Source: Octopus sinensis (lineage: Eukaryota). From it: a DNA stretch of 17,200 nucleotides. Under the pieces are notes generated by a model, which was not told the origin of the DNA, ran no database searches, and was given only the letters and a program-made list of their open reading frames with translations. Positions 230 to 17,200 of this stretch are shown piece by piece. The stretch covers positions 1 through 17,200 of the forward strand of contig NW_021824612.1 in NCBI RefSeq assembly GCF_006345805.1, read 5' to 3'. Made by a program: the position numbers and the translations under genes. Position 1 is the first letter of the stretch; the number at the start of each line of letters is the position of its first letter.

Positions 230-332
230 TGTCTGAAATAAAAAAAATATGGCTAGAACTAAACAAACTGCTCGAAAATCTACTGGAGCAAAAGTTCCAA
301 GGAAACAATTGTCTGCAAAATCTGCTCGCAAG
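230..332 (+). other. Captured histone H3 5'UTR + codons 1-28 (tail through K27)
   Basis: Near-identical to the reverse complement of ~11920-12021 (H3 gene). Identity stops right after ...gctcgcaag. Upstream 1-229 does not match the H3 promoter. Confidence 0.95.
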
Positions 333-2061
333 CTGTCTGCACTAAGAAGACTATGCAGAAGTGGAGGCGTTCCCGCTTCGCACTCCCCGGAGGACAAGAC
401 GGTTCAGTGTGCCACTACGATGAACTGCCGGAGCCGTGGTTCACCGCCACGTGCTTCCGGCTATTCTAGTGGTGTTTTTAATTCTTTAGGTCAAAGCAGG
501 AGGTCGAAGCCTGGACCCTCCCAGATGGGTTCAGCACTCACTGAAGACTCTTCTCCCTCTGCTCCCCCTTTGGCTGGTGTCGGGGGAGCAGCAGCTGCAA
601 CAGGTACTAATTGTTTGGTAGCCACGACAACCGCACAGCATGCTGGTTCGCCACGTGTTTGCGGTTTGTCTAGTGGTGCCAAACCCAGCCAACTTAAGTC
701 ATTTAATGCTAACAGGGTGTCGTCTCCTGGCCCGCTCCGGTGGGTCCGGCAGGAAATAAGGTTCCCCCGAGGACGGTTGGCACACGGTGGGGAAGCCGAA
801 ACGTGTTGTGGCCGTCCAACCCCTAATGTTTTAGGTACTGGGTGTGCGTCCGCTCAGGTGGATGCACACCCAAAGAAGACCACTGGCGCGGGGGGTAGAA
901 TTACCTTGGTGCTGTGGCACGACTTGAGGTCCTCCCTACAAGTGGGAAGGCCTCGGTCGTAAAGATCTTAGGTACGTTAGACTCTATCCAGCCTTCAAAG
1001 CTGTATAGAGTCCTGAAGAGGGAGCCCACCCAATTCCTGCTTGGGTGGGGAGAAGGAGGAGGACTTCTTCAGCTTTAAAGGAGAGCTGGAGAAGTCCAGC
1101 CCGTTCGGTCCTGGCATGCATCGGCTTGTCAGGATTGAACAAAAGGTAAGGCAGGTAAGAGTCCTGCTCCTCGGGGTCCCCCGGGACTTCGAGGATAATG
1201 ACCTTTTAGGACACATACAGCGGGAGTAACCCAGTGCCTCTGCCCTTGCACGCTTCAAGCAGGGTAACCGCCCTCTTGAAGTGGTGGAGGTCATCCTGGG
1301 ATCTCCTGCGGAAGCCGAGCGCCTAGTACTTCTGGGTACTAGGATCGGCTACATTAGGATGAGAGCTGCCTGGCCCCGCCCGAAAGCCACCCAATGCTTT
1401 CGGTGTCAGGGGTTCGGGCACATCTCCACAAAGTGCCCAGATAAGGCGAAGTGCCTTATTTGCGGTGGGGAGCATGGTCGCAAGACGTGCCCCTCACCAT
1501 CCAAGGAGAGGCAGTGTGTCAACTGTGGTAAGTTGGGACACACTGCCAACTTCAGAGGTTGCCCCAAGTTCAAGGAGGCAACCCGAAAGGTAGGTGGGGA
1601 TGTAATCCCAACAGTAAGTCGCCCGCGTCGCGTCGCGCGCCCTGCGCCAAAACCTGGCAAGCAGGCGATACTGGCCAAACCTTCCAAATCCGTTTGGGTG
1701 GCGAAGACAGTGGAACTGTGAGCCATGCTACGTGTGGGTCGGTGCAGCCTTCGTCGACAAAGTTGGCAAAGCAGGTGAAAGCTTCCGAGTCCGCTTGGTT
1801 GCCTAAGCCGGCAATGCCTTCTGAGGCGGCTACGGCGGCGCCGTCCGGCACAACCTGGGGCTGAAAAGGCGTCCTCCATACGTGGAGATGCCATTGCACT
1901 CAGCCCCTGGCGAGCGTGTACCGCAGGACAGTATTAATCCTGCGGTGCAATTATGCGTTTCCCTATTAAAATTTTGTAGGGAGATGAATTGCAGTGTAGA
2001 GGAAATGCTACACTGCAACGTTGCCGAGGCCAAGAAGATCCTTGGCGAAGAACCGATATGA
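249..2061 (+). CDS. Family A ORF1 (gag-like nucleic-acid-binding protein) with N-terminal histone H3 tail + H4 peptide; split by several single-base indels
   Basis: Starts [41 protein letters not shown]. Knuckles CFRCQGFGHISTKC, CLICGGEHGRKTC, CVNCGKLGHTANFRGC (~1395-1562). Ends ...KKILGEEPI* (TGA 2059-2061), read by comparison with copy 2, whose indels fall elsewhere. Confidence 0.8.
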
Positions 2062-4660
2062 TGCTCAACATCATATCGGTGAACGCGCGTTCCTTGGAAG
2101 GAAAAAGGGACGCCGTTCAGAGGATGTTGGCCACCACGAGTGCGGACATTCTGGTGGTCAACGAAACGAAGGTAAAGGGGGGTCCGTACGTAGTCGATGG
2201 CTACAACTGTCGTCACATACCCTGGAAACAGGGGTCAATATGTGGCACAGGAACTAGCCTCTTCTACAAGCCCTACCTTGCCTTGCAGAGTCCAGGTATA
2301 TGTTCATGTAGCTTGTGTGAATTCCTCCAAGTGAGAATTCGCATAGGCGAGTTAACATTTTACCTAGGCGGGATGTACTCGAAGAACTTTACGGCGTGCT
2401 CCTGGCACGTACGGGAGTTCTTTGAAAAGCATCCGAAGGCCATGGTTGTTGGGGACCTGAATGCCAAGCATCAAGATCTTGGTTTCAGGGTAACCAACTC
2501 GCATGGTTTGGCTCTGAAGACGCTGGTTGAAGACCTCGGGCTGGAAATCCGGACTTCGAGCGAGCCAAACCACGTCGACGCGAGGGGAGGACGTGACTGG
2601 CTAGGGCTTGCTCTGGTCAGTCCCGGTCTTCTAAATTGGGTTAGTAAAACTATTTTATTGTCCGATATTGGGAGCGACCATCTGCCTCTATTGCACGAAC
2701 TCCGTGAGCCAGTTCCTCAAAGGGTCCCAGGATACTTTGACCTCCGGGTGGGTTCCTGGGCTAACCTGGAGAGTTTCATGGCCAGCAGGTTGCCCTCACT
2801 TCTGGTGGGGAATACCTGCGCCAACATACGTGAGTTGGAGGCGCTTGATAATGGAATCAATGCTGCCCTGACTGATTACATGCGAGATAATTTCAAACAG
2901 AACTCAGTGCAGGGTCAGTCACATTCCACGCTCCCTCACCGGATCTTAAATAAAATTAGGTTCAAGCGCCGGCTATCCAGACTACGGGACAAATGCGTTT
3001 ACGAGGAGAACCGTGTTTGGTTTCGTGGCTGGATTAGCCGGCTTCAGAGGAGATCCGAAGAGAAATCCGCGAACTCGAAAGTTCGCGGTGGGAGAGGGCC
3101 TGCCGAAGGGTGGACCCTCGCTTTCCGGACTTCTGGAAGCAGTTGAAGAGCCTGTCGGGGAGAAGGGGGGCTAAGTCAGTGCGCCTTAAACGCTCTGATG
3201 GAAACCTCGCTTCGGACCCGGTTGAGGTGGTTGAAATACTTTCAGCCCATCTCAATGGCATCTCGGGAACTGACGGAAGTCAGTTCGTAGAGACATCGTC
3301 CTTTGATACTGTCCAGCAGATATTGTCGTGGGACAAGCGCTGCCAGCTGGGCATATCAAGGAACGATGCAGGCGAAATTACTGAAGCGGAGATTCTGGCA
3401 GCAATCTCCCGAAGTAAGAACACCGCGGCGGGTTTGGATCGGATCCCGATGGCCATCTTTAAGAAGGCCCCGCCGCGGTTAATCACTGCACTAAAGGTTT
3501 TATTTAACGGGAGCTTGCGACTTGGGATGATTCCCTCCAGGTGGAAAGTGGCTGAGGTAATCCTTATCGGAAAGCCGGGAAGCCACATGATGTCCCCGGG
3601 GGATATAGGCCCATTTCCTTGCTCCCCGCAATATCTAAAATCCTAGAAAGAATTATGCACCAAAGGCTCCTGGAGGAGCTGATGGTTGCAGACGCCCTCC
3701 CTGAGTTCCAATGGGGCTTCAGGGAGGGCCGCTCATGCGGGGACTGCCTTCACAAGGTGTCGTCTGGTATGAAGAACGCCCTCCAGAAAAGGGAATGCGG
3801 TATTTTAGTTAGTCTCGACATTGAAAAGGCCTTTGACTCGGTGTGGCACGACGGCCTCCGGAGTTCCCTTCACGTGTGGGGTCTCCGTGTCTAAGGCGCT
3901 GGCTGTCGGGGTTTCTTGAATCTCGCAGGCAGGTCGTGCGGCATCAGGGGGTCTTTTCTAAAGTCGCAACAGTCCTTCGCGGGGTCCCTCAGGGCTCTGT
4001 GCTCAGTCCGACACTATTCAATGTGTTTATGGCCACTGCGCCTATGCCAGTCAATGCTCGTACTGAAATGGTAATCTATGCAGACGACATTATCCTCTGG
4101 GATCACTCAATGAAACCGGAGTGTGCGTGTCGTAGGCTTCAGGTTGCTGTGGATGGACTTGCAAACTGGTGTGGGAGTAGGGGTCTGAGAATGTGCGCGG
4201 ACAAGTGCAGTGTCCTTAAAGTCTGTAAAAGACGAGGGGTTACACTAATTTTGTTCCTAGGTTATTGCTGAGCGGGTCAGCAATCGCTGCAGTGATCGGA
4301 TGACTTATTTGGGCGTGCTCTTTAAGCCGTCCGGTAAGTTTGATGATCACATTGCACGTACGAAAATGCGTGCAATGCAGCGATTAGGTGCGTTGCGTGC
4401 TTTCCGCTTGAGCAGAGGTGCCTGGTTCCGCGTGTTAACGCCATGGTGTTACCCGTCTTGACCTATGGCGTCCACGCTTGGTACCTCTATGAGGACAGGG
4501 ATAAGCATGTTGACGTGCTTAAAAAATAAGAAGACGAGCCATAAGGCTAGCCTATGGCTTAGGATTCCGGACTGAGCTCTCCGACGCCCAGGAATCATCT
4601 CTCAAAGGCCTCTCTGAGGTCCTAGAGAAGATTATTTCTGGATGGCAGGTAAGGCGGTAA
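2058..4660 (+). CDS. Family A ORF2: APE endonuclease + reverse transcriptase (frameshifted in this sequence)
   Basis: MMLNIISVNARSL, VVNETK, VGDLNAKH, GSDHLP (APE). AAGLDRI, WKVAEVILIGKPG, KILER, QWGFREGRS, LDIEKAFDSVWHDGL, GVPQGSVLSPTLFN, IYADD (YADD 4077-4088), YLGV (RT). Stop TAA 4658-4660. No RNase H or C-terminal CCHC recognised. Confidence 0.9.
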
Positions 4661-4755
4661 GTCTTAACCTGTGGTTGTGTGTAGGGAGGCGTGTGTGAGA
4701 TGGAGACTGAAAAGGCAGCGATGCCGAAGGTCTACTTAGTTAGTTTTTAACTCCC

Positions 4756-4798
4756 TTAACTTATAATGTTTTTTCCCCCCCGCCTGAAACTGTTTTGT
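4756..4798 (+). promoter_or_regulatory. Diverged H3-like core promoter (TATA + leader) upstream of element B ORF1
   Basis: ttaacttataa-N15-gcctgaaactgttttgt versus the H3 upstream ttaactatataa-N14-gcctgaaacttgttctgt (reverse complement of ~12019-12062). Confidence 0.55.
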
Positions 4799-4821: not shown

Positions 4822-6167
4822 ATGGCACCTAAGAAAAACTCAAAAGAAAACGCAAAAGCAAACACTGAAGGACAAAAAAGAACAAAAGTTCCAAGGAAAC
4901 AATTGTCTACAATAAGAAACCTATGTCGAAGTGGGAGTGTTCTGACGGATCGGACGGCTCAACATGTTTCCATCAAAGTTGAAGAAGATTCCACCGAACA
5001 ATTTGGAGGTGCTCCGACGGTCCAGATGGTTCAAGGAGAGCCCTCCAAAGTTGAAGAATCCACCGAACCCCCGAGGTCTGACCTTAACAGCTCAGGCCTC
5101 ACATTCACTCTGAGCATTAATAACCCGGCACTTGGAAAGATCAAGAGGTTTAACCTCCTATCCAAGTCGCCAACTGCCTCCAAAGCACGGATTACATTAC
5201 AACGCTCAGGCTCCTTCACTCTTGAGTTCAGGAGCCCCGGAGATGCTGATGCATTCTCGGCTGAGCTTGCAAGATTGAACCCGTTTGGCGAAGGCGGCCA
5301 TAAACTTGCCTTAGTTACTCCGCAAAAGTCAGCACTAGTCCTAAAGGGGATTCCGCGATGGATCTCCAATCGGGACCTAGAGCTGCACCTGAAGGAAACC
5401 CTCAGTTCGGTGTTCGTTCTCGAGCGATTCACGCGAGATGGTCTCGACATCCCAGTTGCTAAGCTGACGCTTGACTCACGAGCTGAAGCTACTTCTTTGA
5501 TCCGCACCGGAATCACAGCTGGTTTCTGCCTTATCACCTGTGAATGGTTCAGGCCTCCTGTCGTCCGATGTTTCCATTGTCAGAGATTCGGACACCTGTC
5601 CCGTAACTGTCAAGAAAAAGCCCGGTGCTTATACTGCGGCAAGGACCACGACCGGAGGGAATGCCCAGGCAGCAAACAAAGTCCAGTGGAGCCCTGCGGT
5701 CGGCATTGTATCAATTGTGACCGCCCCGGCCACCTCGCTTCGTATGGTGGATGCCCGACGGCCAAAGCTGCAACAGCAGCTAAATGGGCCGCCCGCGCAG
5801 AAGCAATGCCTCGGTCTCCTAACCCAACCCGCATGGAAATGGTAAAAGCTAAGCCGGTCACGCCTATCTGGAAAGTACGGCCGCTAATAACCCCGTGTGT
5901 GGCGGACGCCCATACCCAGACGACGCAAGTCGTTGAGGTTGGTGCGCAGAGCATGCAGGCCCCTGTCGCCGAGGCTGTGAAACCGAGGCCCGTCAGCCCA
6001 ATAAGGAACGGTACTCAGCAGCCAAAACGCAGGCGAAGGTATAGACTCACAACAAGGATGCTCTGTTGGAATTTTACCAACGCTGTGTCGACTCACTGCT
6101 GAAACTGGGAGTCAAACCCAAGAAGCTAGAGGAGCTCCTATCAGAGAGGAGCTCGCCAGCAAAATGA
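4822..6167 (+). CDS. Element B ORF1 (gag-like, 3x CCHC) with H2B/H3/H4 mosaic N-terminus; one late frameshift
   Basis: MAPK..GQKR (H2B-like), KVPRKQLS (H3), TIRNLCRSGSV (H4-like). Knuckles CFHCQRFGHLSRNC, CLYCGKDHDRREC, CINCDRPGHLASYGGC. The alternative frame ends ...ERSSPAK* overlapping the ORF2 ATG. Confidence 0.8.
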
Positions 6168-6716
6168 CCACGCCACTAAAAATCATCGCTGTGAATGCCC
6201 GATCTGTCAAGAGACGGCACCTCGACTTCGTTGAGATGGTAAACAGCGGCCATCCTGACTTAATCGTCGTCAACGAGTCTAAGCTGAAAGAAGGTCAATG
6301 CTTCGAATTGCCAGGATACTGCTCCCTTGACCTGAAATGGAGAAATAACTCTACGCCTGGGACTGGGACGACTATCTACTACCTGCAAAATCTCAAGACA
6401 CGTAACCTCAAGACTATCGAACGGAACCTATGCGAATTTATCTCGCTAGAGATTAAAACCCAGCGCTTTTGGTTAAAAGTGGGCGGAATATATTGCAAAA
6501 ACCTTGCTCCATGCATCGGTCTTATCGAAGACTTCTTTGTCAGCTCAAATCATTGCCTCCTCATCGGTGATCTAAACTCCAAACACACGGCATTTGGTTG
6601 TCGCGTGACCAATCGGGACGGCCGGTTACTTGAAAGAGCGGCAGGTAGGCTAGACGTCTGTGTCCGCACCTCGAAAGCCCGGAACCACCGCTCCCCATTC
6701 GGCTGGGACAACCTTT
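6164..6716 (+). pseudogene. Element B ORF2 fragment: APE endonuclease N-terminal part
   Basis: LKIIAVNARSV, IVVNESK, IGDLNSKH, TNRDGRLL; homologous to family A APE; truncated before the SDH motif. Confidence 0.85.
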
Positions 6717-7999
6717 GCGTAGCACCCCAGTAGGGTCAGGGCTCCTACACAACAGCGGAAGCATTCCAGTTGGGAATCTCTGTTGTGTAGGTCCTGATCC
6801 GAGAGGGGACCTCTTTGTGACAAAGCTTTGTCACGGTGGGTTTTTCTCCTCTTATGAGGGACAGCCGAGCGGACCACTTCTGAGTTATGGCACTCATTAG
6901 TGGTTGTCTTCGAGTTTGTGATTGTGCTGGGGGCCGGCGACGTCTGAGTAGAGACATCGACTTTGGACGGACTTGGAGGAGCCGCTTTTGTCCAGACTGA
7001 TTTCATCGGTTCGGCTTTTACCCAGCGTACTGGGCTTTTTGTCTGTGGGCTCTTCGCAACCCTTGAGGCTGCTGTTGCTGCTTTGGCAGACGGACATCCA
7101 CCGTAGCAAGCCAAGTGCCCAGTGTTCTTGCAGTTAATGCAAGTTTTTGCAGCTGGGACACTCGGTTTCGGCTTGAAACCCGGGCAGTTTTGGTGCCTGT
7201 GTTCTTTACCGCAGAGGAGACAACGGAGTTTTTCGGAGCATCTGTAGGACGTATGTCCGAACTGATTGCAACGGAAGCATCTCGTTGCTGACGGCTTGTG
7301 CCATTCGCAGCGGATATGGCTGAAGCCCGCAGTTATTCCAAAGTCCGATTCTAGACTTTCTCTCAAGTGGAGGTTAAGATCCTCTGTCGAGATCCAATGA
7401 GGGATTCCTTTAAGGACCAAGACTGAGGCCTTCTCAGCTACTGAGGCAAGTTTATGGCCGCCTTCGCCAAACATATTCGATTGAGACAGCTCTGCTTTGA
7501 AAGCAGCAGCATCCTCGGGCGAACTGAATTTTAGAATGAAGGTGCCGGACTTCTGTAAAGTTATCCGGGCTTTCGAAGCAGTTGGAGACTTGGATAAAAG
7601 GTTAAACCTCTTGATCTTTCCAAGTGCCGAGTTTTCGATACTCAGAGAATATGTGAGGTTTGAGCTGTTAGGCTCAGTTGTCGTCTGATGGCATTGGGTC
7701 TCAATGTGTTTTTGAGTCACAGCAGGGTTCGGATGTTCGGTGGGATATTCATCTTTTATGGGTTCGCAAAAGGGCTGTGGCTTTGCCGCTGTTCGTCTTT
7801 GAACATGGGAGCAAGCTTTGATTGATGAGAGATTTTGTTTATTCTTTGACATCCCAAGTTGATTATGTACTGTCTTTAAAATTTTCATAAGATATATGGA
7901 AAAAGTTTTCCTTTTCTTTTTTTTCTTTGTAGCAACAGAAACATTTTTGTTTTTTATAGGAGCTCTTTTTTGTCCCTTTGTGCTAACTTTAGGTGCCAT
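6650..7999 (-). CDS. H2B(1-52)-ORF1 in-frame fusion protein (last ~20 codons run into antisense element B)
   Basis: Uninterrupted frame from the H2B ATG (7999): MAPKVSTK...HNQLGMSK|NKQNLSSI...CFRCNQFGHTSYRC...CLLCGKEHRHQNC...CINCKNTGHLACYGGC. About 31-aa in-frame deletion relative to B. Confidence 0.75.
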   Translation of the reverse strand: MAPKVSTKGQKRAPIKNKNVSVATKKKKKRKTFSIYLMKILKTVHNQLGMSKNKQNLSSIKACSHVQRRTAAKPQPFCEPIKDEYPTEHPNPAVTQKHIETQCHQTTTEPNSSNLTYSLSIENSALGKIKRFNLLSKSPTASKARITLQKSGTFILKFSSPEDAAAFKAELSQSNMFGEGGHKLASVAEKASVLVLKGIPHWISTEDLNLHLRESLESDFGITAGFSHIRCEWHKPSATRCFRCNQFGHTSYRCSEKLRCLLCGKEHRHQNCPGFKPKPSVPAAKTCINCKNTGHLACYGGCPSAKAATAASRVAKSPQTKSPVRWVKAEPMKSVWTKAAPPSPSKVDVSTQTSPAPSTITNSKTTTNECHNSEVVRSAVPHKRRKTHRDKALSQRGPLSDQDLHNRDSQLECFRCCVGALTLLGCYAKVVPAEWGAVVPGFRGADTDV

Positions 8000-8054: not shown

Positions 8055-8065
8055 CTTGAAAGAGC

Positions 8066-11000
8066 GGCCATAAACACATTGAATAGTGTCGGACTGAGCA
8101 CAGAGCCCTGAGGGACCCCGCGAAGGACTGTTGCGACTTTAGAAAAGACCCCCTGATGCCGCACGACCTGCCTGCGAGATTCAAGAAACCCCGACAGCCA
8201 GCGCCTTAGACACGGAGAAACCCCACACGTGGCAAGGGAACTCCGGAGGCCGTCGTGCCACACCGAGTCAAAGGCCTTTTCAATGTCGAGACTAACTAAA
8301 ATACCGCATTCCCTTTTCTGGAGGGGGCGTTCTTCATACCAGACGACACCTTGTGAAGGCAGTCCCCGCATGAGCGGCCCTCCCTGAAGCCCCATTGGAA
8401 CTCAGGGAGGGCGTCTGCAACCATCAGCTCCTCCAGGAGCCTTTGGTGCATAATTCTTTCTAGGATTTTAGATATTGCGGGGAGCAAGGAAATGGGCCTA
8501 TATCCCCCGGGGACATCATGTGGCTTCCCGGGCTTTCCGATAAGGATTACCTCAGCCACTTTCCACCTGGGGGGAATCATCCCAAGTCGCAAGCTCCCGT
8601 TAAATAAAACCTTTAGTGCAGTGATTAACCGCGGCGGGGCCTTCTTAAAGATGGCCATCGGGATCCGATCCAAACCGCCGCGGGTGTTCTTACTTCGGGA
8701 GATTGCTGCCAGAATCTCCGCTTCAGTAATTTCGCCTGCATCGTTCTTGATATGCCCAGCTGGCAGCGCTTGTCCCACGACAATATCTGCTGGACAGTAT
8801 CAAAGGACGATGTCTCTACGAACTGACCTCCGTCAGTTCCCGAGATGCCATTGAGATGGGCTGAAAGTATTTCAACCACCTCAACCGGGTCCGAAGCGAG
8901 GTTTCCATCAGAGCGTTTAAGGCGCACTGACTTAGCCCCCCTTCTCCCCGACAGGCTCTTCAACTGCTTCCAGAAGTCCGGAAAGCGAGGGTCCACCCTT
9001 CGGCAGGCCCTCTCCCACCGCGAACTTCGAGTTCGCGGATTTCTCTTCGGATCTCCCTCTGAAGCCGGCTAATCCAGCCACGAAACCAAACACGGTTCTC
9101 CTCGTAACGCATTTGTCCCGTAGTCTGGATAGCCGGCGCTTGAACCTAATTTTATTTAAGATCCGGTGAGGGAGCGTGGAATGTGACTGACCCTGCACTG
9201 AGTTCTGTTTGAAATTATCTCGCATGTAATCAGTCAGGCAGCATTGATTCCATTATCAAGCGCCTCCAACTCACGTATGTTGGCGCAGGTATTCCCACCA
9301 GAAGTGAGGGCAACCTGCTGGCCATGAAACTCTCCAGGTTAGCCCAGGAACCCACCCGGAGGTCAAAGTATCCTGGGACCCTTTGAGGAACTGGCTCACG
9401 GAGTTCGTGCAATAGAGGCAGATGGTCGCTCCCAATATCGGACAATAAAATAGTTTTACTAACCCAATTTAGAAGACCGGGACTGACCAGAGCAAGCCCT
9501 AGCCAGTCACGTCCTCCCCTCGCGTCGACGTGGTTTGGCTCGCTCGAAGTCCGGATTTCCAGCCCGAGGTCTTCAACCAGCGTCTTCAGAGCCAAACCAT
9601 GCGAGTTGGTTACCCTGAAACCAAGATCTGATGCTTGGCATTCAGGTCCCCAACAACCATGGCCTTCGGATGCTTTTCAAAGAACTCCCGTACGTGCCAG
9701 GAGCACGCCGTAAAGTTCTTCGAGTACATCCCACCTAGGTAAAATGTTAACTCGCCTATGCGAATTCTCAATTGGAGGAATTCACACAAGCTACATGAAC
9801 ATATACCTGGACTCTGCAAGGCAAGGTAGGGCTTGTAGAAGAGGCTAGTTCCTGTGCCACATATTGACCCCTGTTTCCAGGGTATGTGACGACAGTTGTA
9901 GCCATCGACTACGTACGGACCCCCCTTTACCTCGTTTCGTTGACCACCAGAATGTCCGCACTCGTGGTGGCCAACATCCTCTGAACGGCGTCCCTTTTTC
10001 CTTCCAAGGAAGCGCGTTCACGATATGATGTGTTGAGCATCATATCGGTTCTTCGCCAAGGATCTTCTTGGCCTCGGCAACGTTGCAGTGTAGCATTTCC
10101 TCTACACTGCAATTCATCTCCCTACAAAATTTTAATAGGGAAACGCATAATTGCACCGCAGGACTAATACTGTCCTGCGGTACACGCTCGCCAGGGGCTG
10201 AGTGCAATGGCATCTCCACGTATGGAGGACGCCTTTTCAGCCCCAGGTTGTGCCGGACGGCGCCGCCGTTAGCCGCCTCAGAAGGCATTGCCGGCTTAGG
10301 CAACCAAGCGGACTCGGAAGCTTTCACCTGCTTTGCCAACTTTGTCGGCGAAGGCTGCACCGACCCACACGTAGCATGGCTCACAGGTTCCACTGTCTTC
10401 GCCACCCAAACGGATTTGGAAGGTTTGGCCAGTATCGCCTGCTTGCCAGGTTTTGGCGCAGGGCGCGCGACGCGACGCGGGCGACTTACTGTTGGGATTA
10501 CATCCCCACCTACCTTTCGGGTTGCCTCCTTGAACTTGGGGCAACCTCTGAAGTTGGCAGTGGTGTCCCAACTTACCACAGTTGACACACTGCCTCTCCT
10601 TGGATGGTGAGGGGCACGTCTTGCGACCATGCTCCCCACCGCAAATAAGGCACTTCGCCTTATCCGGGCACTTGTGGAGATGTGCCCGAACCCCTGACAC
10701 CGAAAGCATTGGGTGGCTTTCGGGCGGGGCCAGGCAGCTCTCATCCTAATGTAGCCGATCCTAGTACCCAGAAGTACTAGGCGCTCGGCTTCGCAGGAGA
10801 TCCCAGGATGACCTCCACCACTTCAAGAGGGCGGTTACCCTGCTTGAAGCGTGCAAGGGCAGAGGCACTGGGGTACTCCCGCTGTATGTGTCCTAAAAGG
10901 TCATTATCCTCGAAGTCCCGGGGACCCCGAGGAGCAGGACTCTTACCTGCCTTACCTTTTGTTCAATCCTGACAAGACGATGCATGCCAGGACCGAACGG

Positions 11001-11527
11001 GCTGGACTTCTCCAGCTCTCCTTTAAAGCTGAAGAAGTCCTCTCCTTCTCCCACCCAAGCAGGATTGGGTGGGCTCCCTCTTCAGGACTCTATACAGCTT
11101 TGAAGGCTGGATAGAGTCTAACGTACCTAAGATCTTTATGACCGAGGCCTTCCCACTTGTAGGGAGGACCTCAAGTCGTGCCACAGCACCGAAGGTAATT
11201 CTGCCCCGGGCGCCAGTGGTCTTCTTTGGGTGTGCATCCACCTGATCGGACACACACCCAGTACCTAAAACATTAGGGGGGGTTGGACGGCCAGCCGCAC
11301 GTTTGGGTTTCCCCACCGTGTACCAACCGTCCTCAAGGGCAACCTTATTTCCTGCCGTACCCACCGGGACGGCCTCAGGAGACGACACCCTGTTGGCATT
11401 AATTGACTTACCTAGGCTGGGTTTGGCACCACTAGACAAACCGCAAACACGTGGCGAACCAGCATGCTGTGCGGTTGTCGTGGCTACCAAACAATTAGTA
11501 CCTGTTGCAGCTGCTGCTCCCCCGACA
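8066..11527 (-). mobile_element. Family A copy 2, truncated at both ends (equivalent to 578-4034 of copy 1): partial ORF1 11527-10040, ORF2 10043-8066 ending before YADD
   Basis: Near-identical reverse complement of copy 1, with a cluster of substitutions at ~11290-11420. Confidence 0.95.
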
Positions 11528-11590: not shown

Positions 11591-12002
11591 TTATGTTTTT
11601 TCACCTCGAATTCTTCTCGATAAATGCATATCGTTTGGCATTATAGTTACTCTTTTTCCGTGAATTGCGCACAAATTACTATCTTCAAAAATTCCAACTA
11701 GGTAACTCTCTGCCGCTTCTTGGAGAGCGACAATCGCTGACGATTGAAAACGCAAATCAGTTTTGATAAACTGAGCGGTTTCTCTCACGAGTCTCTGGAA
11801 TGGAAGTTTTCGTAGTAACAAATCAGTGCTCTTTTGATATCGTCTAATTTCTCGCTTGCTGCAACAACTCCAGGTCGAAATCGATGAGGTTTCTTTACCC
11901 CTCCAAATTGTGAAACAGACTTGCGAGCAGATTTTGCAGACAAATGTTTCCTTGGAACTTTTGCTCCAGTAGATTTTCGAGCAGTTGTTTAGTTCTAGCC
12001 AT
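11591..12002 (-). CDS. H3: Histone H3, divergent (apparent indels near the 5' end)
   Basis: MARTK...[38 protein letters not shown]...[39 protein letters not shown]...RRIRGEKT*. Confidence 0.95.
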
Positions 12003-12063
12003 ATTTTTTTTATTTCAGACAGAACAAGTTTCAGGCTAGTTATTTTTGTTTTATATAGTTAAA

Positions 12064-12119
12064 CAAAATTATTCCGAATTTTTCGAGTGATGCAAAAAAG
12101 TATCATTCCGAAAATTTTT
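12064..12119 (-). promoter_or_regulatory. Histone upstream motif (AAAATTTTCGGAATGATACTTTTTTGCAT) plus degenerate second copy, ahead of the H3 TATA
   Basis: The same motif pair recurs upstream of H4 and H2B. Confidence 0.7.
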
Positions 12120-12280
12120 GGTTAAATCACTCATCATTTTTAAAATTACAAAAATTATATTTTTTAAAATAATATTTTATCAGCACCATCAAATAATTGT
12201 AACTATTGCTTAAATTGATGAATTTTTCGAGATTACAGACTAAATTACTAGTGAACTAATTAAGAAAAAACAGAGAACGA

Positions 12281-12470
12281 TCAGATCCGGTCAAAAGAAT
12301 AGCTTGGTGTTGCCGCGCATGATTGTACCAGAGATCCTCTGTCTTAGCCAAGAAGATTCGCTTGCATCCATGTTTCTCCGAGCGATAAGGAGGCAGACGT
12401 GTTTTAAGAACTTGGATGTTTGCGGGACAAAGCTGCGGAGATCTGAATGCCAAAGGGACCAATTACTAGT
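12281..12470 (-). mobile_element. 3' remnant of a restriction-like-endonuclease (CRE/R2-type) non-LTR element, duplicate copy
   Basis: ...FVPQTSKFLKHVCLLIARRNMDASESSWLRQRISGTIMRGN resembles the REL C-terminal 'L.QRLS..I.RGN' motif. Confidence 0.55.
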
Positions 12471-12531
12471 TGCATTTGGATTGTTGAAATAGTTATTTAA
12501 AGAAATAAATAAAACAATTATTTTTAAAGTG

Positions 12532-12859
12532 TTATTTTGTATTCGTGTACTTAGTAACTGCCTTTGCACCCTCTGTAAAGGCATGTTTTGCCAATTCACC
12601 GGGAAGAATCCGACGAACTGCAGTCTGTATTTCACGTGAGGTAATGGTAGCCTTCGAATTCTGATAGACTAGATTTGATTTTGCCTCGGTTTTATTTTGT
12701 CATAAACATCAAATGTGAAAATGTCCATAGCCACATAGCCTTCTTTGACATCCCAAGTTGATATGTACTGTCTTTAAATTTTCATAAGATATATGGAAAA
12801 AGTTTTCCTTTTCTTTTTTTTGTTTGTTGCAACAGAAACATTTTTGTTTTTTATAGGAG
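12532..12859 (-). pseudogene. H2B: Histone H2B, lacking the first ~12-13 codons, with multiple indels
   Basis: Reverse-complement match to 15242-15570; the 5' end is replaced by Tc1-like sequence. Confidence 0.9.
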
Positions 12860-13131
12860 TCGGCAATAGACGCAAAGAGCTTTTTTCAAGTAAAATATCG
12901 AATTACTACTATGGCCAACACAAAGCCCAGATTTAAACCTTAGAGAATGTTTGGCCTTTATTAAAGAAAAAATCAAAGGAAGAGAATTTTTGAAAAAGGA
13001 ACATTTATTTGCAAAAAAATATCATCCATTTGGAATTAACTCAAAATAGATACGCAAAAAGTCTTATTAATAGCATGCCAGGCCGAATACTAGATGTAAT
13101 TAGAGCTAATGGAGGACATAATAGATATTAA
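12860..13131 (+). mobile_element. Tc1/mariner-superfamily transposase C-terminal remnant
   Basis: IELLLWPTQSPDLN..ENVW and KSLINSMPGRILDVIRANGGHNRY* match Tc1 WPxQSPDLNPIENxW and SMPxR...GGxTKY. Candidate right ends are ...ccgTA (13183) or cactgTA (13320-13326). Confidence 0.85.
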
Positions 13132-13546
13132 ATAAATTTGTTCATTTTTTGGGTTCTGAATTATGAATGAATGGAAAACCGTATTATAAATATAATTTTT
13201 TAGACAAACTAAAAAATAAAGCAAAACTTTATTTAATTTTATAAATCAATAGATGTTATTTTTTAAATATTGTTTCATAGTAAATCATGAGAAAATGCTT
13301 TTTCAGTTTTTATTTTGTTCACTGTATATATTTACTATTTTTTGGGATAATTAGCCTAAGTAAATAAATTATATTGGACTAAAAAAATATTTCGCCAATG
13401 ATAAAATAACACAGTATTGCGATATTTTATCTATAATTACTTCTAAATGTTTATTCGTTTTGTGTTTGAAATTTTTTGAATTCGTTAAAAAAACTTAACT
13501 GGTTGATCTATTGTATTCGAAAACAATATTACAAAATAACAGTGCA

Positions 13547-13920
13547 TTATTCAAATAATAATTTAAAGTTAGAAGTTGGTTTAGGAGTTTCTGCAGTTTT
13601 GCGAATCATAAATCCACCAGATGAAAAATAGCTTTCTGAGTTTATTCTTTAATTCGTCGTCATTTCCAATTGCAACGACAATGTGACGTGGTTTAATTCT
13701 TCTTTTTCCACATTTTACTGCTGTATTTCCAGCAAGTTCAAGCATTTCAGCCACAGCTATTCCAATACTGCGCACATATATACTGCGGAAGGATTCCTAC
13801 TCGCATTCGGGTTCATGACGGAGACACCGGTGAATGCGTACACTGGAAACTGTAACCCGGCCCGAACGGATTTGCTTTTAGCCTTTGACCGTACTTTCCT
13901 CCTTTTCCTCTTGAAGACAT
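13547..13920 (-). CDS. H2A: Histone H2A, strongly divergent, several indels; 3' end approximate
   Basis: MSSRGKGGK..KAKSKSVRAGLQFPV.RIHR...AVYMCAVLE..AEMLELAGNTA...KRRIKPRHIVVAIGNDDELK...GG. Confidence 0.85.
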
Positions 13921-13979
13921 TATACTCTGCTAACTATTTTTATTTACATAATAAAAAAAATGGCATCGAAATTTAGTTG

Positions 13980-14047
13980 AAAAATTTTTCGGAATGGTCC
14001 TTTTTTGCATTAGTCGAAAAAATTTGGCAATGATACTTTTTTTGCAT
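13980..14047 (+). promoter_or_regulatory. Tandem histone upstream motifs in the divergent H2A/H4 promoter
   Basis: aaaatttttcggaatggtccttttttgcat followed by aaaaatttggcaatgatactttttttgcat. Confidence 0.7.
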
Positions 14048-14084
14048 AGGTTGAAAATAGTGTTTATTTAGAGAATTTTTCCTA

Positions 14085-14393
14085 ATGTCTGGACGTGGTA
14101 AAGGTGGCAAAGGAGGAAAGAGTGGTGGCAAAACGATTTCGAAAGATATTAATGACAATATACAAGGAATTACTAAGCCAGCAATAAGAAGACTATGTCG
14201 AAGAGGGGGGTGTTCGAAGAATTTCTGGAAAAATTTACGAGGAGACACGTTCTGTCCTTAAGATTTTTATTGAGCAAACTGTTCGTGATTGTATTTCTTA
14301 TACTGAACATGCCAAAAGAAAAACTGTTATCGCAATGGACGTTGTTAATGCCTTGAAACGTCAGGTAGGACAATTTACGGATTTGGTGGATAA
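14085..14393 (+). CDS. H4: Histone H4, divergent (compensating indels in G runs)
   Basis: [11 protein letters not shown]...[38 protein letters not shown]...[30 protein letters not shown]. Confidence 0.95.
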
Positions 14394-14622
14394 ATTATAC
14401 ATAATTTTTTTAATAAAATACATTGATATTCCTTACAAATTAACCAGATAAAAATTAGCAATTTCATAAATATACTAACTAGCTACCAAACGACGGTGAA
14501 ATTACTACGATTGCTTTTTTAATTGGTAAGAAATCTTGTGAAATAACAAAAAACAAAAAGTATATTTATACAGTAAATTAGAGTTATATCGTTTGAAAAA
14601 TTTATTTTTTTCTAATAGTTTA

Positions 14623-14670
14623 TTTTTTTGCATCTGTTTATAATTATGTTTATTTAGAGAATTATTGCGA
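14623..14670 (+). repeat. Diverged duplicate of the H4 proximal promoter/5'UTR (~14037-14084)
   Basis: ttttttgcat...tgtttatttagagaatt-N7-ATG in both places. Confidence 0.7.
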
Positions 14671-14913
14671 ATGGACCCCAGAGCTCCGGCCAATCGGGCA
14701 ATGGACGATTATTTCTCCGAACATGGAGACAAATATCGGGGAAGACCTAGATCCACTCTTCCGACAGTTCTTGAAAGGGATCTCAAACTTCATGGCAAAA
14801 GTTTCAAAAACTGGGACGACCTAGAATCTTTACGGGATCTCGCCCGCAACAGAAGGGCATGGACAAGGATGGTCCAGAAGATTGTTTCGCTTGTGACACG
14901 TGTGGGATTATAA
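14665..14913 (+). mobile_element. 5'-truncated RTE-like non-LTR retrotransposon C-terminus (80-aa ORF from ATG 14671)
   Basis: LRMDPRAPA...RGRPRSTL...ERDLK...LARNRRAW resembles the RTE-clade C-terminal (GHxLRM...RGRP...DL...A.DR..W) region. Confidence 0.7.
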
Positions 14914-15097
14914 CTTTGTTTATGTTCCTACGGAATGTGTTATAATAACTAAAAACATCAAAATTGATATTAATTCGGATTTATTTAAAATTGATTTGAC
15001 GTATTAATTCATTCTTTTTCTTTTTGAGCCATTCCTTAGCTCTTTAACTGCAATCTCTTGTCGACCATCACCAATCTGATTTCAATCGTCAACTTCA

Positions 15098-15160
15098 AAA
15101 ATTTTGGAATTATACTTTTTTTGAATTACTCAACAAAATTTCGGAATGATACTTTTTTAT
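15098..15160 (+). promoter_or_regulatory. Tandem histone upstream motifs before H2B
   Basis: aaaattttggaattatactttttttg and aaaatttcggaatgatactttttt, followed by TATA-like tattata. Confidence 0.7.
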
Positions 15161-15204
15161 TATATGAGATTTTTTCCCTTCAGAACTTGCAAATTTTGTG
15201 GATA

Positions 15205-15570
15205 ATGGCACCTAAAGTTAGCACAAAGGGACAAAAAAGAGCTCCTATAAAAAGCAAAAATGTTTCTGTTGCTACAAAGAAAAAAAAGAAAAGGAAAACT
15301 TTTTCCATATATCTTATGAAAATTTTAAAGACAGTACATAATCAACTTGGGATGTCAAAGAAGGCTATGATGGCTATGGACAGTTTCACATTTGATGTTT
15401 ATGACAAAATAAAAACCGAGGCATCAAATCTAGTCTATCAGAATTCGAAGGCTACCATTACCTCACGTGAAATACAGACTGCAGTTCGTCTGATTCTTCC
15501 CGGTGAATTGGCAAAACATGCTATTACAGAGGGTGCAAAGGCAGTTACTAAGTACACGAATACAAAATAA
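15205..15570 (+). CDS. H2B: Histone H2B, intact, 121 aa
   Basis: MAPK...[40 protein letters not shown]...[35 protein letters not shown]. Confidence 0.97.
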
Positions 15571-15827: not shown

Positions 15828-16170
15828 TCGTTCTCTGTTTTTTCTTTAATTAGTTCACTAGTAATTTAGTCTGTAATCTCGAAAAATTCATCAATTTAAG
15901 CAATAGTTACAATTATTTGATGGTGCTGATAAAATATTATTTTAAAAATATTTAATTTTTTAATTTTAAAAATGATGAGTGATTTAACCAAAAAATTTTC
16001 GGAATGATACTTTTTCGAAAAAATTCGGATTATTATCAGCACTGCCGAGAACACATAAAAAACCAAAATCAATTTAGTTCCTTTGTGTCGCGCAGACTAC
16101 CCTTTGCACAAATCGTATTCAAAGCCCTTTCCGTTTCGTTTTAGCAAAGAATTTCTATTGCCATTCTCGA

Positions 16171-16933
16171 TTGAAGGCTGGATTGAGTCCAAGGTACCTA
16201 GGATCTTTACGACCGAGGCCTTCCCACTTGTAGGGGACCTCAAGTCGTGCCACAGCACCAAAGGTAATTCTACCCCCGGCGCCAGTGGTCTTCTTTGGGT
16301 GTGCATCCACCTGAGCGGACGCACACCAGTACCTAAAACATTAGGGGTTGGACGGCAGCAACACGTTTCGGCTTCCCCCCACCGTGTGCCACACCGTCCT
16401 CGGGGGGAACCTTATTTCCTGCCGGACCCACCGGAGCGGGCCCAGGAGACGACACCCTGTTAGCATTAAATGACTTAAGTTGGCTGGGTTTTGGCACCAC
16501 TAGACAAACCGCAAACACGTGGCGAACCAGCATGCTGTGCGTTGTCGTGGCTACCAAACAATTAGTACCTGTTGCAGCTGCTGCTCCCCCGACAACCAGC
16601 CATAGGGGGAGCAGAGGAAGAAGTGTCTCCAGTGAGTGCTGAACCCACCTGGAGGGTCCAGGCTTCGACCTCCTGCTTGACCTAAAGAATTAAAAACACC
16701 ACTAGAATAGCCGGAAGCACGTGGAGGTGAACCACGGCTCCGGCAGTCATCGTAGTGGCACACTGAACCGTCTTGTCCTCCGGGGAGTGCGAAGCGGGAA
16801 CGCCTCCACTTCTGCATAGTCTTCTTAGTGCAGACAGCTTGCGAGCAGATTTTGCAGACATTGTTTTCCTTGGAACTTTGCTCCAGTAGATTTTCGAGCA
16901 GTTTGTTTAGTTCTAGCCATATTTTTTTTATTT
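16171..16933 (-). mobile_element. Family A copy 3: 5' portion only, again starting with H3 5'UTR + H3 tail + H4 peptide (ATG at 16920)
   Basis: Reverse-complement match to ~236-998, with its own substitutions. Confidence 0.95.
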
Positions 16934-16934
16934 T

Positions 16935-17200
16935 GGGAGGGCCGCTCATGCGGGGACTGCCTTCACAAGGTGTCGTCTAGTATGAAGAGCGCCCTCCAAA
17001 AGGGGAATGGTATTTTAGTTAGTCTCGACATTGAAAAGGCCTTCGACTCGGTGTGGCACGACGGCCTCCGGAGTTCCCTTGCCACGTGCGGGGTTTCTCC
17101 GTGTCTAAGGCGCTGGCTGTCGGGGTTTCTTGAATCTCGCAGACAGGTCGTGCGGCATCAGGGGGTCTTTTCTAAAGTCGCAACAGTCCTTCGCGGGGTC
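16935..17200 (+). mobile_element. Family A RT fragment (matches from 3722), running off the window
   Basis: Matches the ...LDIEKAFDSVWHDGL... coding region with a few substitutions. Confidence 0.9.

Follow-up and report, generated by a model that had tools for sequence, protein, structure and literature searches.

The 17.2-kb stretch of DNA analysed here, an entire contig of 17,200 nucleotides referred to below as the window, carries near its end what we read as an inverted 5' piece of a non-LTR retrotransposon with APE and RT domains. The family to which this piece belongs, family A, inserts at the starts of histone genes and carries a histone 5'UTR and N-terminal histone tail in frame with its ORF1. 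The piece, copy 3 (16171–16933, minus strand), was likely produced by twin priming, and its histone head would then be the 5' end of the RNA that was copied; we place the probability of this reading at roughly 0.7. New here are the inverted structure of copy 3 and the correction of an earlier argument for selection that was built on four synonymous sites.

The window holds two other family A elements. Copy 1 (236–4781, plus strand) is full-length, with ORF1 at 249–2061 (three CCHC knuckles), ORF2 at 2061–4660 (APE and RT) and a 3' tail at 4762–4781, and copy 2 (8063–11527, minus strand) is cut at both ends and nearly identical to copy 1 from 960 on. On the intact natural 868-aa ORF2 frame of one copy (L012), APE (PF03372/PF14529) is followed by RT (PF00078); ORF1, located upstream, contains three CCHC motifs (PF00098), and open head-to-knuckle frames are found on contigs C10696 and C8744. 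The 3' end of the family is fixed, with a T-run and a variable C/TCC tail in 46 ends, many copies are 5'-truncated, and there is no LTR. Exact matches across the genome number 33 for the head-ORF1 joint and 44 for the 3'-end 19-mer, and the DNA fetched around all of them amounts to 662 kb. Judged by its sequence, family A is an APE-type non-LTR retrotransposon (LINE). Membership of R2 was considered and is excluded by the two ORFs, the APE domain and the histone targets, as opposed to a single ORF, a restriction-like endonuclease and the 28S site. The search for target-site duplications in dispersed full-length copies gave only 6–7 nt matches at chance level; insertion without such duplications is also known in LINEs (PMC4494074). 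The best relatives are 23–32% identical and almost all unlabelled, the profile search gave no match to an RNase H domain, and the proteins resembling ORF1 include PRE_C2HC X-element proteins.

Directly behind copy 1 lies an element of family B (4822–6735, plus strand), whose ORF2 is 32% identical to that of family A and which has its own H2B/H3/H4-like head. The ORF1 of a family B' element (6736–7999, minus strand) is fused in frame to H2B codons 1–52 (7842–7999); other B' copies (L106, P0156) start without a histone head. In a public run with another organism label (X16), 1292 contigs, mostly 90–99% alike, match 29 of the 30 bins of L012:400-5700, which looks like a related, active-looking family in another sample. 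Among the matches listed for runs X5, X8, X9 and X16, no piece bridges the head-ORF1 joint. Seven other runs under the same species label contain next to none of the family's sequence words, which we do not count as evidence. No RNA run is listed among those containing these words, which speaks neither for nor against expression.

Copy 3 and its inverted structure

Read on the minus strand, copy 3 comprises the H3 5'UTR, the head and ORF1 codons 1 to about 253, with neither 3' end nor tail. The 5'UTR (16921–16933) stops about 14 nt before the ATG at 16920 and is followed by H3 codons 1–28 (16838–16920), which have the paralogue-1 haplotype of the H3 gene at 12002 and contain indels resembling read errors. 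Next come the LSA joint (16829–16837), a remnant of an older H3 QLSA that is identical in H3- and H2B-headed copies, and the H4-derived ALRRLCRSGGV (16799–16831). The initial annotation had described the H3-LSA-H4-ORF1 joints as those of copy 1, and indeed the same elements occur in the same order and with identical joints. Over its length, the piece aligns with copy 1 positions 236–998 at 95.9% identity, with 16 mismatches and 16 gap bases. As assembled it has no open frame, with 12 deleted and 5 inserted bases against majority columns. The rate of 16.7 gap openings per kb resembles that of the adjacent H2A gene (16.9) and H4 gene (12.9), and most of the indels are therefore probably read errors.

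The four substitutions in the ILGTLDS codons (16184–16204, minus strand) on which the initial annotation had relied (tta>cta, acg>acc, tta>ttg and tct>tca) do occur, fall in the ORF1 frame and are synonymous, but they are not the whole difference between copies 1 and 3. There are 14 codon differences, 6 synonymous and 8 non-synonymous, plus indel codons. Five of the eight non-synonymous differences (M93V, E99G, S101T, P103S and L108M) are common to 16–24 of the 33 other copies, and the remaining three are private and look like indel artefacts. Likewise, three of the four ILGTLDS alleles occur in 7–8 of the 33 other copies and serve as subfamily markers; tca alone is private, at a distance of 13 nt from the break. 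In its body, copy 3 differs at 8–10 positions from six H2B-headed copies and at 13 from copy 1. The RT piece at 16935–17200 shows no difference to five copies of the same subfamily and 5 to copy 1. Copy 1 is itself a haplotype mosaic that switches to another subfamily from about 900 on. Since the body and the RT piece of copy 3 share a subfamily from which copy 1 departs at about 900, the ILGTLDS changes mark a subfamily boundary beyond the crossover in copy 1.

Copies 1 and 3 have different flanks and different body haplotypes, which rules out that they are alleles or segmental duplicates of one insertion. In this respect the independence claimed for copy 3 stands; it is weakened by the observation that, alone among the H3-headed copies examined, copies 1 and 3 have one 601–900 haplotype block in common. 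Because they share this block, conversion or cross-polishing between the two is possible.

Read along the plus strand, the flank is followed first by the inverted 5' piece (from 998 down to 236 in copy 1 numbering) and then by a direct RT piece (16935–17200), which matches copy 1 positions 3722–3986 and runs off the contig end. The flank (16030–16170) continues uninterrupted on contigs C6330 and C8899, where the insertion site is empty. Copy 3 thus presents an inverted 5' piece beside the flank and, attached to it, a direct 3' piece from the same element and subfamily, as in the layout of twin-primed, 5'-inverted L1 copies (PMC2912911). The point at which the inverted piece stops, about 14 nt before the ATG, falls within the 13–17 nt before the ATG at which most dispersed family copies begin. 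Inversions of this kind are rare in the family: five opposite-strand junctions were found in the fetched 662 kb, and only that of copy 3 has a head. Most 5'-inverted L1 copies show microhomology at the flank junction (PMC2912911). None was found at 16170/16171, and the expected 5-nt overlap at the inversion joint (16933/16935) is present only imperfectly, with two differences. No contig contains the far side of the insertion, the present one stopping at 17200. Taken on its own, a twin-priming inversion from a single insertion is the fairly probable origin of copy 3. Provided that both primings used a single RNA, its 5' end was the H3 head, and in this sense copy 3 offers a structural argument for the head as the 5' end of the RNA.

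Copy 3 could instead be what is left of an older full-length copy, cut and inverted at some time after its insertion when an unstable histone cluster was rearranged at the DNA level. This would fit the other inverted and truncated blocks in the window, the head-to-head and tail-to-tail joints found elsewhere and the lack of microhomology at 16170/16171. It would, however, have to place one break exactly at the usual 5' end of the family and the other at a clean site that is empty on two contigs, with both pieces drawn from one subfamily, and we regard it as unlikely. Were it correct, the picture of the family would stand, and copy 3 would be uninformative on the RNA 5' end.

An assembly artefact, either in copy 3 as such (a chimeric long read at the contig end) or in its haplotype mix (polishing with reads of other copies), is less likely again. 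The contig is short, the 16.7 gap openings per kb are those of an indel-rich assembly, copy 3 mixes three haplotype blocks, one of which is also found in copy 1, and neither junction occurs on any second contig; cross-polishing could produce such indels and patchwork haplotypes. On the other hand, 11 of the 14 codon differences to copy 1 are not noise, being plainly synonymous or involving an allele that other copies also have, and the inverted and direct pieces agree in subfamily. Moreover, the family is independent of copy 3 (33 joints and 44 exact 3' ends), and pieces 90–100% similar to it occur in public runs under three other organism labels.

Histone heads and the inherited joint

The fetched DNA contains 36 copies with the LSA-LRR joint, 28 headed by H3 and 8 by H2B. 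In seven further copies the head is H4, about 50 codons long; six of these share one junction and one has another. Within the window, the H3 gene at 11592–12002 (minus strand) represents the source type of the copy 3 head, the H2B gene at 15205–15570 (plus strand) the source of the alternative head, and the H4 gene at 14085–14393 (plus strand) the source of the LRRLCRSGGV core; an H2A gene lies at 13570–13920 (minus strand). Twenty of the 28 H3 heads carry one gene haplotype and six the other, one is mixed, and that of copy 3 is unreadable by pattern. Among the seven H2B heads scored, six show one paralogue haplotype and one the other. The statement that the head is inherited with family A accordingly applies to the (Q)LSA-LRRLCRSGG core and the joint; the sequence in front has been exchanged among H3, H2B and H4 and between paralogues. 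In 17 of the 36 copies with the joint, the 400 nt upstream are free of histone-cluster DNA, which argues that the heads travel with the element.

The core is in turn a mosaic of H3 QLSA and H4, and family B carries the same core twice. In its H4-like part, 25 of 30 nt agree with the H4 of this organism, whereas 150 shuffles gave no more than 20 of 30; it also contains a Cys as this H4 does, where the chromosomal H4 has Ala. We take its likeness to H4 to be beyond chance.

That heads are made anew at each insertion, by long target duplication or by template switching to histone mRNA, is highly improbable: the heads carry no derived marker relative to the present-day H3 and H2B genes, as this would predict, but the joint is identical to the base in all H3-headed copies of both haplotypes, the head type and the downstream gene usually differ (e.g., an H3 head before H2B, H2A or H4), and the 17 copies mentioned above lack cluster DNA upstream. 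The same mismatch of head and downstream gene led us to reject the head as a long target-site duplication. Reverse-transcribed histone mRNA behind the element was also rejected, as the downstream genes run on into genomic spacer.

Further histone-like starts were seen in related sequences. The family B head (window 4822–4945; L109, L054) is a mosaic of an H2B-like start, H3 KVPRKQLS and H4 IRNLCRSG; most family B copies repeat QLSAIRNLCRSGG further in, and the window copy is without that repeat. At C9339:69490 (L047), another ORF1 starts with MAPKV and contains an H3-like KQRARESTGGK stretch, which we read as an older, decayed head. Repeated H3 pseudogene-like starts (MARTQQTAQKSTGAKFPRKQ) at C8884:12226, C9339:43699 and C10250:36505 break off after about 28 codons and lie behind a promoter-like motif. 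Among the best 150 matches to ORF1, no relative has a histone head; the positive control recovered the H2B and H4 parts of family A and nothing in family B. Three close ORF1 relatives carry the same host label and have no head.

Insertion sites, selection and source of the DNA

The 46 family A 3' ends were sorted by script into 37 groups, and merging three pairs by eye left 34 distinct junctions. Thirteen of these (38%) are located at histone 5' ends; the share expected for the fetched 662 kb is 0.8% (P about 4e-19). Twelve have the ATG of a histone or of a head within 70 nt, and one continues into 25 nt of H2B 5'UTR; the other 21 junctions fall in spacers of the clusters, in other repeats or in unrelated DNA. 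Each of the four core histones is targeted, with insertions 7–60 nt before the ATG of a histone or of the histone head of another element. H2B insertions recur at −23, which makes H2B the commonest precise target; those at H3 and H4 fall at −17 to −19, and the remaining ones are spread between −7 and −60. The same end positions are used by families A2 and B and by a third family. A target-specific LINE has been defined by more than 20% of flanks being of one sequence type (PMC4494074). With its share above this value, family A is classed from its junctions as a target-preferring LINE.

The 3' tail of copy 1 (4762–4781, plus strand) reads TATAATG-T6-C7 and matches the TATA-to-start stretch of H2B paralogue 2. 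Twelve of the 46 tails read TATAATG, a T-run and a C-run like this stretch, and six more differ by one base.

Several loci show particular arrangements. At C8744:152674-163732 (L013, L014), tandem units consist of an H3 promoter, a family A element, an H2B gene and spacer, the element replacing H3 in each. At C9339:29279-35702 (L020), a full-length copy is bracketed by two occurrences of an H2A gene with about 700 nt of downstream spacer, an arrangement that resembles a very long target duplication. Two family A pieces are arranged head-to-head at C12441:35509-36684 (L059) and at C10743:19741-23021 (L035, L056), with 3' ends at the starts of different histone genes or heads. Such pairs look like two opposite-strand primings joined at their cDNA ends. 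The C12441 pair ends at an H4-headed element and at H2A, and the shared divergent promoter is missing. Two dispersed copies (C8901:257986 and C8750:76520) occupy almost identical positions in one repeat, with opposite orientations, and downstream sequence is common to the C12605 and C8853 copies and to the C12814 and C12418 copies.

The 33 exact joint matches in the genome, together with pN/pS ratios well below 1 in both ORFs, bear out the earlier view of a real, selected family rather than a one-off chimera. The reasoning by which that view had been reached does not hold, as the four synonymous ILGTLDS sites were hand-picked and mark an older subfamily split beyond the crossover point in copy 1. 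Selection rests on the family, not on the four sites. For variants shared by at least two contigs, pN/pS is 0.33 in ORF1, computed against natural open frames, and 0.24 in ORF2. Within ORF1 the ratio is 0.19 before the knuckles and 0.11 in the knuckles, both in the folded part, and 0.55–0.62 in the low-complexity, poorly conserved N- and C-terminal ends, which are weakly constrained; along ORF2 it stays at 0.19–0.27. Between pairs of subfamilies the values are 0.19–0.28 for ORF2 and 0.18–0.36 for ORF1. The comparison of copies 1 and 3, with indel neighbourhoods masked, yields a dN/dS of 0.36 (158 codons, 6 and 6 changes), or of 0.18 when confined to the 136 codons after the head, and has too few sites to be read alone. 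In the head and core (codons 1–41), nine shared variants are synonymous and none non-synonymous. Five of the synonymous variants fall in codons 1–28, where they mirror histone paralogues and are uninformative on selection of the head itself. The four synonymous and zero non-synonymous variants in codons 29–41 give a weak hint of constraint there.

All matches to the family lie on unplaced contigs and none on the chromosome-sized contigs, which hold a second histone set. This chromosomal set is 79% identical to the divergent set at H3 and H4 and has stem-loops at 12 of 12 loci. The scan used the known pattern of the histone 3' stem-loop. No such stem-loop was found in the divergent set in the 498–662 kb scanned, and the divergent genes (window 11592–15570 and related clusters) instead show AATAAA-like signals. 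The unplaced contigs also carry a second, compact chaperonin gene set, three of these contigs bear family A as well, and candidate GT-AG introns of about 20–30 nt were read by eye at exon gaps of the compact genes. Introns this short have been reported outside myxozoans only for Dicyema (PMC13644364). An innexin gene adjoins one family copy, and Octopus sinensis is the label of the public proteins that match this DNA. We take a co-assembled parasite, probably a dicyemid, to be the likely source of the DNA. An H2B that is 75% identical and shows the same unusual motifs carries the label of the ant Vollenhovia emeryi, on a 2.3-kb contig (P0040, P0122); it possibly reflects a related cobiont or contamination.

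Proposed mechanism and known systems

Lacking a 5'UTR of its own, the element starts with that of a histone, and copies are located behind intact H3, H2B and H4 promoters. It is likely that histone promoters are borrowed for transcription of the element; the copies behind an intact promoter would be the transcribed masters, and the dispersed copies would be promoterless. Deletions and duplications between neighbouring histone genes are seen around insertions. The end of the cDNA may anneal to the nearest matching histone gene, much as the 5' junction of R2 forms by annealing of target sequence at the RNA 5' end with 28S DNA (PMC11331408). Annealing to the resident histone gene would explain why heads are identical to resident paralogues and why cluster DNA is deleted or duplicated. 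The in-frame joining of a 5'-truncated cDNA to a histone gene would create a new head, and joints out of frame would not spread. At the other end, the C-rich tail and a few read-through histone bases could pair with the nicked strand and reinforce the choice of target; in R1Bm and SART1, downstream target bases in the RNA aid priming (PMC7265360). A tentative and rather doubtful extension is that the lineage is a parasite of histone promoters that has taken both of its ends from its target. The translated histone 5'UTR and tail would be under selection, perhaps as a histone mimic or an import signal that returns the particle to histone loci, the 3' end would have been copied from the H2B core promoter, would guide priming through base pairing and may give a TATA box back to the displaced gene, and copy 3 would be a frozen intermediate marking the RNA 5' end.

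Among the literature matches listed, and as judged from those listings, no histone-targeting or histone-headed LINE was found; most subscription journals and Repbase Reports were outside the coverage. Tf1 and the Drosophila element 297, in an insertion in the H3 TATA box, reportedly integrate near host transcription starts. TRE and Ty at tRNA genes (PMC5006619) likewise integrate near the transcription starts of host genes. As far as the compared accounts go, such promoter-targeting retrotransposons (TRE, Ty, Tf1, 297) differ in keeping their own promoters and taking no target coding sequence.

HeT-A and TAHRE (PMC5537684) are similar in their head-to-tail arrays and in upstream sequence driving a downstream element, and the nearest Atlas lead for ORF1 is of the PRE_C2HC / CCHC type, as in HeT-A and TAHRE. 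HeT-A, as described there, has its own 3' promoter at chromosome ends, whereas the promoter of family A would be that of the host histone gene. Fusions of transposable element proteins with chromatin domains (bioRxiv 10.1101/2021.11.30.470311) also combine host chromatin-related sequence with element proteins. The domains named there are readers and enzymes (PHD, Chromo, SET, SNF2) rather than histone tails, and its supplementary table 6 could list histone fusions. SINEU and Tx1-clade families such as Keno (PMC4494074) share recurrent host-gene 5' heads, target preference and tandem stacking. Their heads are non-coding snRNA on non-autonomous elements, and the word "histone" is absent from that paper. 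The 5'-inverted L1 copies (PMC2912911) resemble copy 3 in their flank, inverted 5' piece and direct 3' piece of one element type. Copy 3 differs from them in lacking flank microhomology, in showing no target-site duplication (the far side lying beyond the contig end), in being a non-L1 element and in that its inverted piece reaches the very 5' end.

The R2 and R1/SART-type elements (PMC11331408, PMC7265360, PMC4494074) are alike in targeting a multicopy gene family, in the lack of an identifiable promoter of their own (R2), in 5' junctions annealed from target sequence at the RNA 5' end and in the use of downstream target bases in priming (R1Bm, SART1). R2 has a restriction-like endonuclease and one ORF, in contrast to the APE and two ORFs of family A. 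Family A furthermore targets four Pol II protein-coding genes over about 7–60 nt rather than one base, and its captured target sequence would form the translated beginning of ORF1. In the literature compared, target-specific LINEs insert in RNA genes, microsatellites, telomeres or other transposons; family A uses protein-coding gene starts and would translate captured host codons within its own ORF1. It would thereby give a direct view of how a LINE acquires and exchanges its promoter and 5' end, a long-standing issue in the evolution of these elements, and a testable case of a natural histone-tail fusion in an APE element that prefers promoter-proximal sites.
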